In this document: positions 60,053 to 64,000 of the stretch, in pieces | Position numbering within the stretch: position 1 is the stretch's first letter | Layout of the letters: each line of letters begins with the position of its first letter | Sequence record: NC_019517.1 | DNA length: 64,000 nucleotides | Strand: one strand, 5' to 3' | From: Escherichia phage FV3 | Notes under the pieces: generated by a model | Database searches by the model: none | What the model saw: the letters and a program-made list of their open reading frames with translations, nothing else | Told to the model about the DNA's origin: nothing | Translations under genes and position numbers: made by a program

Positions 60053-60247
60053 CTAGACAAACTCTGCAAGGGTTGTGTTGTTCACTGCACCGCAGTAGAT
60101 GGAATACCCCAACCCATTATGGTGCAGAAACCACGGCACACCTTGGTCATCCTTCACGTATACATCTCCATTTTCCGTAAAGGGCCAATACTCCTCTCCG
60201 ATGGTAAAATACCTACTCATACCTTCAGCCAGATACTTTACTTTCAT
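60053..60247 (-). CDS. hypothetical protein, KDDxG paralog group
   Basis: VKDDQGVPWFLHH. Confidence 0.4.
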   Translation of the reverse strand: MKVKYLAEGMSRYFTIGEEYWPFTENGDVYVKDDQGVPWFLHHNGLGYSIYCGAVNNTTLAEFV

Positions 60248-60471
60248 AGATCCTCTTCAACAGCTACAAACTTGGCAAGTAGGGTGGTTCCATAGATATG
60301 ATACTCACCATTTGCCAGATGGGAGATAAACCAGGCAACACCTTCCTCGTCTTCGATCATATTGTTCCTGCGATCCTTATCGTAGTAAACCTTGTAGACC
60401 TTACCTTCTTCAAAGAATGACAGGTCTGTCATCTTTTCTTCTACAAACGTCGCTTTAACCAAAGTTGTCAT
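60244..60471 (-). CDS. hypothetical protein, KDDxG paralog group
   Basis: EDEEGVAWFISHL. Confidence 0.4.
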   Translation of the reverse strand: MTTLVKATFVEEKMTDLSFFEEGKVYKVYYDKDRRNNMIEDEEGVAWFISHLANGEYHIYGTTLLAKFVAVEEDL

Positions 60472-60752
60472 TGATCTGCCTCCTTCTTGTTGAGCCGGAA
60501 CACTGCAATAATAGCATTTCCAAGATGCAGTGTCAAATCATTTCCCAGATACCATAACATTCCACGGTCATCTTTAATGAAAGGGTAACAATCCGGTGCC
60601 TTCCAGACATTATACACTTTGCCGACCTGAAAGAAATCAGGCCCTGTTGGAATTTTAGTACCTGGCCACACTTGAGACACCTGAACGCACTCTACCTGCA
60701 TAATAACAGGAATAGTCATGGAGGTAAATGTTTTTGTCGGTTCTACTACCAT
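60468..60752 (-). CDS. hypothetical protein, KDDxG paralog group
   Basis: IKDDRGMLWYLGN; start uncertain (track ORF to 60842 would overlap the polymerase exon). Confidence 0.35.
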   Translation of the reverse strand: MVVEPTKTFTSMTIPVIMQVECVQVSQVWPGTKIPTGPDFFQVGKVYNVWKAPDCYPFIKDDRGMLWYLGNDLTLHLGNAIIAVFRLNKKEADQ

Positions 60753-60801: not shown

Positions 60802-61155
60802 TTAGTGACAATCGCCCCAGTTACGACCACACAAGTATTCACCTGTGATCTGGAACGGAACGCCCATCATTTTAGAAGCTTGCCAGAAGCAATGCACCAC
60901 CATTTCGCCCACAGGGCTCCAGATAAGTTCAAGCTTTCCGTCCTCGTTCAAGATAGGATCGTATACCGTATTTCCATCCTTGTCAACCACTTCGTTTCCG
61001 TCCTCATCCTTGCGTGCCTTTTTGTACTTATGACCGTCGAACACATGAAGTTTGGCCTCCTGCTCTGCCTTAAATGCTTCCAGTTCTTCGATTGTGTCGA
61101 AGGTGTACACAGTCTTATACTTCGGTGTGTCAGGTACTTGAAGTTGGTACTCATC
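60802..61155 (-). CDS. DNA polymerase family A, exon 2 (C-terminal)
   Basis: begins DEYQLQ, completing motif C HDE; ends ...QITGEYLCGRNWGDCH like T7 gene 5 ...LDTEGKMGPNWAICH. Confidence 0.7.
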   Translation of the reverse strand, partial: DEYQLQVPDTPKYKTVYTFDTIEELEAFKAEQEAKLHVFDGHKYKKARKDEDGNEVVDKDGNTVYDPILNEDGKLELIWSPVGEMVVHCFWQASKMMGVPFQITGEYLCGRNWGDCH

Positions 61156-61997
61156 CAACAGTTCAGGTAGGTCGTTAAGCTACCCCGCACCATTACGTGC
61201 ATAGCCATACAGTTTCCCGTATGGATCGGACTATCTCACTGCCTTGTTACCAAGGCACCTCTCATTTCGACCGCACTTGCTGGCCTACTCTACTCGCTTC
61301 TTCACACCAAACTATGTTGGAGCTATGCTTTCGATAGTCTCTGAACGTTACTACCAGGTGTAGTTTTTAGAGATATGTTTCCACTGTCTTCTTTGCTTTA
61401 TGGCCCTGACCGTTTCATAAGGATACCCAAGATCCCTAATCTCACATTGTCGTAGACCGCTCTGTAACAGTTCGCAAATCTCAATTACCTCATCCTCGGT
61501 CAGCACAGCATTGGCATTATACTCGCCGACTGGCCTTACTCTGAGGTCATTATCGTAGGCGTGTTTGATATTTCCACCAGGGGTGGTCCACTCCAGGTTC
61601 CAGTATGCATTGTTGTACTTATTTCCATCCTTATGGTTCACCCATGTGAGCCTTTCAGGATCAGGGTTTGATACAAAGCATTCGGCAACTAAGTGGTGGA
61701 CACCTTTTGTGTACTGCTTCCCCTCTATGAACATGGTCACGCAAAGGTAACCTCGACCATTATCAAAACAAAACATTGTTGTATGATCACGTTTCGATAA
61801 AGGTATTGTTCCATCATCAAACACGGTATACCCGTGATAATCAGCTGATCTAGCCATTTTAACTACACCCCTTTAGTCTTCGCTGCGGATTAGCATATTG
61901 AGCTTTTACCATGTTTAGGTGTAAAAGTCAACTTAGCCTTCCCGTCAATTAAAGAGGTTTTCGACGTGCATCACTGCACGAAGCCACAATGTTATTT
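61156..61997 (-). mobile_element. group I intron in DNA polymerase gene carrying an HNH homing endonuclease
   Basis: on minus strand: P-like AATTGACGGGAAGG, Q AATCCGCAGC, R GTTCAGAGACTA, S GAGATAGTCC; P1 exon CCAT with GTGG; terminal G before exon 2. Confidence 0.7.
61351..61857 (-). CDS. intron-encoded HNH homing endonuclease
   Basis: HNH block WVNHKDGNKYNNAYWNLEW; paralogous to the nrdD intron endonuclease. Confidence 0.85.
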   Translation of the reverse strand: MARSADYHGYTVFDDGTIPLSKRDHTTMFCFDNGRGYLCVTMFIEGKQYTKGVHHLVAECFVSNPDPERLTWVNHKDGNKYNNAYWNLEWTTPGGNIKHAYDNDLRVRPVGEYNANAVLTEDEVIEICELLQSGLRQCEIRDLGYPYETVRAIKQRRQWKHISKNYTW

Positions 61998-64000
61998 ATG
62001 GTAATAAATAATACGACGAACACCTTCATCGTACCACCCACGCTTCACCATTTGGTGGTGCATGAGTATCCCAACTAAATCACACAACGATGCACCGCCA
62101 TTTTGTTGGTATGCATTAAGTAAAGAGTGTTTAGATCGGGTCCAGATGGCATGACCATCAAAAGAGTAGATAAACTTCTTACCAGTTGCTTCCCAGAATT
62201 TCTCCAGATCCTCTTTACGCCCCTTAAGACCGGGGTTGGCATCCCAAAGCGCATCGATTACCCTTTGCCCCAACTCTGGAGAGATATCCAGCATGTCTGC
62301 AACTTTATCTTTTTGTGCCCCGTACATAACCCCATACGTGATAGGTTTACCGTCGTTACGAGACACCTCTCTGCCTGCTACTTTTGTATATGCCTCAGCA
62401 TTGTTTTGGTGTGCGTCCCCGTTACTTACAACATCATAATACAGGCCGTTGTCAAACTCAAAGGCACCCCAAGCCCCGATAAGCTGCTCTAAGTTAGACC
62501 CGTCAATACCGATCTCAAAGTATCCTGGAGGAACACCCCACAGACTACGCATCTCTTTACCCATAACCACTTTAGGAGATGGTTTAGGCATGTTTGCACA
62601 AATACTGTGTTTCTGTCTGGAAGTGTTTGTTAATCCAGAACTTTTAGCAGGAAGCTTATGGTCAATCTTCAAACGTGGGTGATTAAGAAGACCAGTATCA
62701 ACCTTATCCTCCTTGATTGGATCAAGTACCGATCTACGGTTTCGCAATGATAACCACAAAACGATATCTTTAGCCATCTCTCCGTTCAATTTTTCAAGAT
62801 TAGGGCATAGGTGCCCAAACGTGTCTTTCAGTTGTGGAGAGGTAATAAGTGCTCTGGCCTTTCTACGTATCTTCCCAAACACTTCCTTTTTAACCCTTTC
62901 TGAGTTAGGGAAGCTTCGGAACTTATGCACAGTTGTCTGAAACTTGGCATCAGTTTTGTTCCAGAAGTTGATAATTAGGTCACAATACTCTGACTCCAAA
63001 AGCTCGTCCATATATGCATATACTCGTGCATCAACATCTGCATCAGGTAAAGCTTTCTTCTTGCTGTCTTTAGTTACATCCTTAGTTCTCCACATTGTTG
63101 GGAGCCAACCAGCACTGATCAGGTATCTCTTAATATCGTCCTGGTTGCTGATCTTCATAGGTATCTTGCAGTCAGGCATCCGCTTCTGCTGTAGATCACT
63201 TATTGCCTGGTCCATTAGCTCTTTAGGTAAAGGATGTGGTGTAGAGGTCCCTTTAATATACCCCCTTAAGAAATCAGCCATCTTATCGGGATCTTTGCAG
63301 CCCATCTCTTCACACCATTTTATCCCCATTTTGCTGACATCCCCTGTGGAGGTAAATGCTCGCTTAGGAGGAGCTTTGAACTCTAAAGCGCTCATGTCCA
63401 CAGGATAGCCAAGCTTGTCTTTTAACCATTTCCAACCATTATTGGAGATTGTCCCATCCTGGTTAAACGGCTTTTCAGGGAACTTAGGCCGCTGAGACAT
63501 TGATAACTCTTTTAAAGGAAGTTGTGGTTCAACACGATCAGCGATCTCTTTCATCCACGCATCGCAGCGGTCACGTAAAGCAATAGCCCCATCTATGTCG
63601 AAATACACACCCTGTCGAGCCTGCAGCTCCATCAGGAAATGCTGCAGCATGCCTCGGCGTAATGCATTCTTCCAGGTAATCTTCTTGAATCCTTTAGGCT
63701 TCTCTTTGGCAGGGTCATACATAAAGTTCTGCATGTCAGATTTGCCGTAGAATACACCTTTTGATTCCGCTACCAACTCTTTCCAGAGCAACTCCTGGAT
63801 GATAACGTCCTCGAACACACGATCCACATATTTCCACAGCGGAAGCTCACGCCAGTCATCGATTTGAACTTTCTGGTTACCAAGGGCGTAGCCCCATGCC
63901 ATAAGGCCATGAGGCCCAACAGGCTGCATTTTCTTGGTAACTGGATTAAATACTGCGTCCGGACAACCTTTTGGCAAAGGTCGGTCAGGCCACAAGATTC
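61998..64000 (-). CDS. DNA polymerase family A, exon 1 (partial; continues beyond window)
   Basis: motif B GKPITYGVMYGAQKDKVADML; FDGHAIWTRSKHSLLNAYQQNGGASLCD aligns with T7 DNAP LDGRKVHVRSPHAALNTLLQSAGALICK; ends ...RRIIYYH at motif C. Confidence 0.7.

Follow-up and report, generated by a model that had tools for sequence, protein, structure and literature searches.

The stretch analyzed here (hereafter the window) comprises 64,000 nucleotides (nt) of Escherichia phage FV3 (NC_019517.1), a region that shares 94-97% identity with many Vequintavirus coliphage genomes and whose minus strand carries a Vequintavirus (rV5-like) family A DNA polymerase gene in two exons. We propose, with a probability of roughly 0.93, that the sequence separating the exons is a group I intron of type IA (IA2-like), both mobile and self-splicing, inserted between the codon for the His of polymerase motif C and those for the catalytic Asp-Glu. 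The evidence comes from the fit of the exons to each other and to uninterrupted alleles, from a ribozyme fold maintained by compensatory changes among homologues at the identical site, and from an open reading frame (ORF) for an HNH endonuclease lodged in one of its loops.

The interrupted polymerase gene and its junction

The gene and the insert are organized as follows:

61998-64000, minus strand: DNA polymerase exon 1 (Pfam DNA_pol_A; ends ...GVRRIIYYH; alignment with T7 gp5 residues 490-653)
61156-61997, minus strand: group I intron (IA type; Rfam RF00028), 842 nt; starts AAAUAA, ends UUG (omega-G 61156)
60802-61155, minus strand: DNA polymerase exon 2, 117 codons plus stop; begins DEYQLQ (GAU GAG encoding the catalytic Asp-Glu), ends GRNWGDCH

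The frame of exon 1 runs from the window edge to ...RRIIYYH-K-stop, with the His codon CAT at 62000-61998 and the TAA stop at 61994-61992; it is truncated at the window end, with about 140 N-terminal codons lying past 64000, as judged from the uninterrupted 2778-nt coding sequence (CDS) of phage rV5_ev158. Exon 2 is coding from 61155 to 60805, followed by a stop codon at 60804-60802. An earlier note on this DNA, made from the sequence alone, had placed the upstream stop at 61992, the downstream frame at 60802-61155 and 842 nt between them, all of which is correct to the base. Its assignment of the gene to the family A polymerases agrees with the Pfam match and the alignment with T7 gp5 (up to WVHDEIQV) for exon 1, and with the match of exon 2 to the C-terminal end of phrog_8888 'DNA polymerase' (E 3e-58). 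The 'T7 gene 5-like' tail that it had attributed to exon 2 holds at the level of a motif, GRNWGDCH versus GPNWAICH at the C-terminus of T7 gp5 (shared GxNWxxCH; single-comparison E 0.046), the resemblance being confined to the motif. When the C-terminal 46 residues of exon 2 were searched against the PDB, the matches were WD40-repeat proteins, which were discarded as they had no significant single stretch and their E-values were summed over repeats.

When 61998 is joined to 61155, the reading frame continues as ...IIYYH|DEYQLQ.... The peptide IIYYHDEYQL formed in this way aligns with MAWVHDEIQV of T7 gp5 (residues 649-658), with the His-Asp-Glu of motif C present; because the alignment runs through this segment, the split can be placed at T7 His653|Asp654, the latter (Pol I Asp882) being the metal-ligand Asp of motif C. 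The motif is thus intact only once the exons are joined and is contiguous in intron-less alleles, so that the earlier note's view of an insertion exactly at the catalytic residues is borne out. The in-frame fit of the exons together with the restored motif is far beyond chance.

A comparison with intron-less relatives, which that note had suggested as a check, gave a direct answer: in a tblastn search, the conceptually spliced peptide is encoded without interruption in rV5_ev158 and YN3 with 99.3% identity. The polymerase CDS of rV5_ev158 is contiguous (925 amino acids [aa], 2778 nt) and precisely lacks the insert, reading ...TATTACCAT|GACGAATATCAG... (GACGAA after the junction), versus ...TATTACCAT|842 nt|GATGAGTACCAA... 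(GATGAG after the insert) in the window. At the level of sequence, the junction is proven by these intron-less relatives. Further, homologous introns were gathered from four Vequintavirinae genera and a Vibrio phage (CR9, PBES 02, SSE121, 24-2-1, qdvp001 and IMG/VR contigs), and every one of them occupies the identical point ...Y-H|D-E..., with the exon ending in CCAU, the intron starting with AAR...AUUGUGGC and closing with a G, and exon 2 starting with GAUGA. The omega-G (G61156 in the window) is invariant among these homologues. The TTG at 61158-61156 was considered as a start codon for exon 2 and rejected, as it lacks a ribosome-binding site and the triplet is the conserved 3' end of the intron.

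Fold and proposed splicing of the intron

The elements of the insert, in the 5' to 3' order of the transcript, are:

61984-62001, minus strand: P1, exon CCAU plus intron AA (62001-61996) with the guide UUGUGG (61989-61984); 6 base pairs (bp), invariant in nine homologues
61965-61980, minus strand: P2 hairpin CGUGCA/UGCACG; 6 of 6 pairs changed on both sides, 100% of cells paired
61883-61957, minus strand: P3 5' strand (61957-61952), P4 (61948-61941 with 61889-61883) and P5/P5a (61937-61903); holds the conserved elements P and Q
61350-61877, minus strand: P6a extension holding the endonuclease gene; mini-construct fold z = -2.5
61351-61857, minus strand: HNH homing endonuclease ORF, 168 aa, I-HmuI type (PDB 1U3E, phrog_59)
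61228-61341, minus strand: 3' half of the catalytic core, with P3, P7, P7.2 and P8 97-100% paired and showing compensatory changes; its parts are the next five lines
61341-61335, minus strand: P7 5' strand G-A-GACUA (element R)
61285-61269, minus strand: P7.2, GGCC-A-GC / GC-GGUC; 100% paired, 2 covarying pairs
61263-61258, minus strand: P3 3' strand
61257-61240, minus strand: P8
61233-61228, minus strand: P7 3' strand UAGUCC (element S)
61156-61224, minus strand: P9 (61224-61205), P9.1 (61200-61187), P9.2 (61185-61165) and the 3' tail to omega-G 61156; from the alignment fold and pair counts

The earlier note had recognized group I elements P, Q, R and S, a short P1 and a terminal G, all of which are present in the window intron, P1 being a helix of 6 bp with a U.G pair at the splice site. 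It had also proposed a search with the Rfam Intron_gpI covariance model; this recovered a match to the full model over 62007-61206 with 30.4 bits (E 2.3e-5 local, 7e-4 window-wide). An ORF-less copy of the same ribozyme from phage SYGMH1 (328 nt, 98.7% identical) scores 75.6 bits (E 2.4e-19), and the homologous introns score 57-91 bits. Together with the covariation described below, these matches uphold the identification of the insert as a group I intron.

The fold was derived from an alignment of nine homologues at the identical site, by RNAalifold and then by a hand-drawn canonical topology evaluated with pair counts. RNAalifold recovered P1 (with U.G at the splice site), P2, P3, P4, P5, P8, P9, P9.1 and P9.2. 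The program does not handle pseudoknots and so matched the 3' strand of P7 to the 3' exon region; this pairing was replaced by the canonical P7, which was in turn tested by the pair counts. In the resulting P1-P9.2 structure, including the P3/P7 pseudoknot, 98.8% of cells are standard pairs and 29 of the 63 pairs show changes on both sides; sliding one partner by 1-3 columns lowers the paired fraction to 37-43% and leaves 0-5 pairs with both-sided changes, and 500 column shuffles produced no values as high as these. In P7, the paired fraction is 100% and two pairs are compensatory, and the U61998.G61986 wobble of P1, in which the last base of exon 1 is the partner of the guide, is invariant.

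The P6a stem is formed by ACUA...GGUGUAGUU (61877-61861) paired with AACUACACC..UAGU (61365-61350); it brings the ends of the ORF together and encloses its GGGG Shine-Dalgarno sequence, its AUG and its final codons. ORF-less alleles have a 14-nt hairpin, CAUCCGAGAGGAUG, at this position. A 71-nt segment between the P7 5' strand and the P3 3' strand contains the well-supported P7.2, and by this token the intron is predicted to belong to subgroup IA (IA2-like).

Based on this organization, we propose that the polymerase gene would be transcribed as a single pre-mRNA, in which P1 (exon CCAU with the guide UUGUGG, U.G at the cleavage site) would present the 5' splice site for an attack by an external guanosine after U61998. 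The guide CAUU (61991-61988) could pair with GAUG of exon 2 in a 4-bp P10, which, along with omega-G 61156, would align the 3' splice site. Ligation of the exons would then generate ...YYH-DE..., i.e., a polymerase of about 925 aa with the junction ...TATTACCAT|GATGAGTAC... and the junction peptide ...IIYYHDEYQLQVPDTPK. The AAAUAA at the start of the intron places an in-frame stop two codons inside it, such that unspliced RNA would yield an inactive fragment.

The same arrangement might be read as an intervening sequence that does not splice, with the polymerase being made as two polypeptides that assemble non-covalently, as in the NrdA protein of phage Aeh1, which is split by mobE. Many GenBank records do annotate two separate 'DNA polymerase' CDSs, a TTG or GTG stands directly before exon 2 (GTG in L014, L015 and L018), and one HNH intron of Pectobacterium phage CB7, in another gene, did not splice (PMC7344957). 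However, the intron must end in ...U-G, which accounts for the TTG/GTG, there is no Shine-Dalgarno sequence before exon 2 (ACCUACCUGAACUGUUG), and the break would part the His from the Asp-Glu inside the catalytic motif. Moreover, the fold is kept by compensatory changes across genera, even in ORF-less copies, which argues that splicing itself is selected, and the homologous CB7 intron at the same motif C site was found to be spliced in vivo by reverse transcription PCR and sequencing (PMC7344957). Hence, we consider a polymerase assembled from two polypeptides highly improbable.

The endonuclease gene and proposed homing

The 168-aa ORF lies in the extended P6a, between Q (the P4 3' strand) and R (the P7 5' strand), as the earlier note had stated, and its affinities also match the HNH endonuclease named there: it matches phrog_59 (E 1e-37), and I-HmuI (PDB 1U3E, E 3.5e-6) is the one solved structure related to it, with VNHKDGNKYNNAYWNLEW of the window aligning with VDHKDGNKDNNLSTNLRW of I-HmuI across the HNH motif. 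The homologues at the same site conserve the motif V-[N/D]-H-K-D-G-x-K-x-N-N-x3-N-L, which in the window reads V-N-H-K-D-G-N-K-x-N-N-x3-N-L; His75, Asn82, Asn83 and Asn87 are invariant in five homologues. The Pfam HNH_3 match is weak (17.7 bits, below the cut-off of 24.8), and the sole match in an NCBIfam search, ZorE, was dismissed as meaningless (E 0.04, 12.7 bits versus a 600-bit cut-off). The ORF is intact and is 92-99% identical in other isolates and a diverged relative. A 2025 survey found phrog_59 to dominate the polymerase introns of the Bastillevirinae (PMC11878797).

We propose that the 168-aa HNH enzyme would be translated from the P6a loop, with low expression expected as its ribosome-binding site and AUG would lie inside or beside a helix of the folded intron. 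During mixed infection, it would nick or cut intron-less polymerase alleles near the insertion site, and repair templated by intron-bearing genomes would copy the intron in, i.e., homing would occur. In this regard, comparison of the window with a diverged IMG/VR relative (L015) reveals 78-86% identity over the intron and 64-76% over the flanking exons, and such better conservation of the intron is a signature of lateral movement.

Certain points weigh against a mobile, self-splicing intron in the window. The Rfam score of the window copy (30.4 bits) is below the gathering cut-off of 50 bits, which we attribute to the 510-nt ORF insert in P6. The nine sequences used for covariation are relatives, and their counts do not amount to independent events. 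P7.1 differs in length from one homologue to another, is missing from one of them (L020) and is ill-defined in the window copy, where we left it undefined because the isolated P7.1-P7.2 segment folds no better than shuffles (z = 0.13). We infer splicing of the window copy, and in Vequintavirus sensu stricto, from the CB7 homologue. In the structure of I-HmuI, the residue preceding the catalytic His is a metal-ligand Asp, and this position is occupied by Asn in the window and by Asn or Asp in the homologues. Finally, nicking or double-strand cutting by the HNH protein of the window, as well as its target site, are predictions from sequence.

The ORF also raises the possibility of a polymerase pseudogene disrupted by a free-standing HNH cassette, with replication relying on another polymerase. 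Free-standing HNH genes are abundant in these phages (21 HNH genes in CB7; PMC7344957). However, the exons are intact, in frame and share 99.3% protein identity with uninterrupted alleles; the arrangement is kept in at least 31 independent isolates, all viable lytic phages; and the flanks of the ORF form a complete ribozyme rather than a random spacer. The Rfam and ORF data likewise offer no cause to invoke a second polymerase, although no search was aimed at one in the window. Thus, the chance of a pseudogene is negligible.

Another alternative retains the splicing ribozyme but holds the endonuclease to be decaying or non-functional, with the intron being a vertically inherited remnant. It draws on the ORF having been lost or never present in 28 of the 59 intron-bearing records, the truncation of its CB7 counterpart (CB7_50), the weak HNH_3 match and the Asn in place of Asp before the catalytic His. 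Yet, the window ORF is uninterrupted and conserved at 92-99% elsewhere, even in the diverged relative, its HNH core residues are conserved, the intron and its ORF are more conserved than the surrounding exons, and the presence of the intron is patchy within a genus of >94% identical members. On balance, we regard a decayed endonuclease as unlikely, albeit far less so than a split or defunct polymerase, and favor an intron that is still mobile. The patchy presence across such closely related genomes suggests recent gain and loss.

Alleles of the genus and known counterparts

Examination of about 121 Vequintavirus records revealed four allele states at this site:

842-nt intron with the ORF: 31 records (e.g., CM1, HeinrichReichert)
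328-nt ORF-less intron: 4 records (SYGMH1, JEP1, HMD-6, JLBYU08)
divergent 276-nt ORF-less intron: 24 records (e.g., rV5, LL12, PDX)
intron-less: the remaining ~60 records (e.g., rV5_ev158, Murica)

The 276-nt variant scores 64.7 bits against the Rfam model; its ends are identical to those of the other introns and its helices differ by compensatory changes.

These alleles also differ in a block of synonymous changes directly 3' of the insertion site. The first four codons of exon 2 are GAT GAG TAC CAA in all 9 intron-bearing alleles examined, and among 7 intron-less ones, 4 have GAC GAA TAT CAG, i.e., four synonymous differences in consecutive codons, and 3 are identical to the intron-bearing flank, a form (GATGAGTACCAA) represented by Murica and EduardKellenberger (Fisher P = 0.019 for block versus intron absence, uncorrected for relatedness). 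Between the window and rV5_ev158, 4 of the 7 differences across 135 flanking nt fall within these 12 nt (hypergeometric P≈0.001, post hoc). Two distant intron-less polymerases likewise use GAC. The GAU of the intron-bearing form would permit the 4-bp P10 (GAUG with CAUU), which GAC would be expected to break. Accordingly, the block may stem from the P10 constraint, from co-conversion or from selection for resistance to the endonuclease, and these are not distinguishable here. One tentative possibility, which we rate as rather doubtful, is that it represents a naturally selected cleavage-resistant ('immune') target site in a live arms race that pits an I-HmuI-type endonuclease against the codons for the catalytic site of an essential polymerase, with susceptible empty, resistant empty, ORF-less intron and intron-plus-ORF alleles coexisting in one genus and GAU being additionally constrained by P10.

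Other insertions were observed in the same gene. In VB-EcoM-WM, exon 1 of the polymerase contains a 323-aa in-frame insertion (L003:3093-4061) with the hallmarks of an intein, starting with C-YSGDTQILT and ending with ...VCGN followed by Cys, ~15 residues before motif B; the Mangalyan polymerase has the same extra length. In some strains, this gene is thus home to an intron as well as an intein. The window lacks this insertion, with the equivalent empty site at ~62409|62408 on the minus strand (...NGDAH|QNNAEAY...). Extra group I introns (Rfam 47-79 bits) occur farther upstream in the polymerase genes of Seunavirus SSE121, Avunavirus 24-2-1, Certrevirus CB7 and IMG/VR contigs (L019:486-1127, L018:923-1126, L027:20865-21535 on the minus strand, L015:1891-2266 and L017:898-1200); a window-wide Rfam scan recovered the motif C intron only and none of these upstream introns. 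Additionally, 52 nt of the intron core, from the P4-P6 region, recur with 92-94% identity inside the terminase large-subunit gene of many Vequintaviruses (e.g., MaxBurger 1241-1292). This presumably corresponds to the terminase introns reported for rV5, which would place related ribozymes in two genes of one genome.

With regard to annotation, exon 1 and exon 2 should form a single polymerase CDS of ~925 aa. In many public Vequintavirus entries, that of the rV5 reference among them, the gene still appears as two or three fragments labeled 'DNA polymerase' or 'hypothetical': in rV5 RefSeq NC_011041 (545-3496), CM1 and Alma, the polymerase is split into 2-3 CDSs or 'hypothetical proteins' over the intron (rv5_gp220-gp223). 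The gene of Alma is intron-less, and its annotation too is divided into two CDSs; the division lies upstream of the junction and may reflect a frameshift or a sequencing error. About 15-20 GenBank records labeled 'UNVERIFIED: Campylobacter phage' (MG0656xx) are Vequintavirus genomes, 88-99% identical to Escherichia coli phages in this region, and their Campylobacter host label looks doubtful. Directly downstream of the polymerase, the region 60056-60752 contains three small ORFs on the minus strand (60752-60471, 60471-60247 and 60247-60056), which share a weak motif, GKVY..(V/F)....(I/V)(K/E)D(D/E).G..W(F/Y)(L/I), with identities of 22-26%, and could be tandem paralogues.

The window intron is an already known and annotated member of a well-known class of elements. 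Phage HeinrichReichert (MZ501073, BASEL) carries a version that is 96.7% identical over all 842 nt, and its record has a two-piece joined CDS, whose length fits the removal of exactly 842 nt, along with a 'putative homing endonuclease' CDS; the intron boundaries in BASEL phages were set by comparative genomics (PMC8594841). Likewise, the polymerase CDS of LL12 (MH491969), which has the 276-nt variant at the same site, is a join bearing the note 'intron-interrupted gene; intron splice site predicted based on homology'. These are the same element as that of the window, known there as database annotations. We found no paper on the ribozyme structure, allele spectrum or splicing of the Vequintavirus intron: the LL12 paper does not mention it, and the rV5 genome paper describes terminase introns only, with the polymerase annotated as fragments. 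While the finding opens no new question, two features deserve a note, namely the coexistence of four allele states and the synonymous block. This polymorphism (intron-less, two ORF-less ribozyme variants, intron with endonuclease, and an intein in some strains) would make the genus a natural setting well suited to studying the cycle in which homing elements are gained and lost.

A close counterpart with reported splicing is the aforementioned motif C intron of CB7 (a Pectobacterium phage of the genus Certrevirus, Vequintavirinae), which interrupts the gene at the identical point, ...RRIIYYH|DEYQLE..., has ends homologous to those of the window intron (AAGUAACAUUGUGGC... and ...UUUUG) and carries an HNH ORF, CB7_50, in the same loop. 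It differs in belonging to another genus, in that CB7_50 (L027:19945-20328) is only 127 aa long and lacks the C-terminal region of the 168-aa protein of the window, and in the presence of a second intron farther upstream in the polymerase, which the window lacks. The shortening of CB7_50 may represent an ORF degenerating while the ribozyme is kept.

Beyond the subfamily, gene 5 introns of the phages ΦI and W31 (AY769989 and AY769990), with the HNH endonuclease I-TslI, were reportedly described by Bonocora and Shub in 2004. These introns of T7-like phages are self-splicing, belong to IA2, have an HNH ORF in P6a and occupy site 881 in E. coli Pol I numbering (PMC3428280). The window junction at T7 His653|Asp654 is at the equivalent position, an equivalence based on that secondary citation (PMC3428280) and the mapping to T7 gp5. 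The host gene there is that of a podovirus, only about 27% identical to the window polymerase in this region, and the introns, compared here by site, may be homologous as RNAs or may have converged on the site. The polymerase introns of SPO1, SP82 and Bastille (with I-HmuI, I-HmuII and I-BasI, respectively) are also hosted by family A genes, and their nicking HNH enzymes belong to the protein family of the window ORF, I-HmuI being that of the SPO1 intron. However, they come from phages of Gram-positive hosts and lie at site 674, in the fingers subdomain, unlike the motif C location in the window; the introns of SPO1, Bastille and Pf-WMP3 have been placed at this site in E. coli numbering (PMC3428280). 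The window intron adds another case of a selfish intron aimed at those codons of an essential phage replication gene that are most conserved, with motif C of the family A polymerases now being an intron site in podoviruses (ΦI, W31) as well as large myoviruses.

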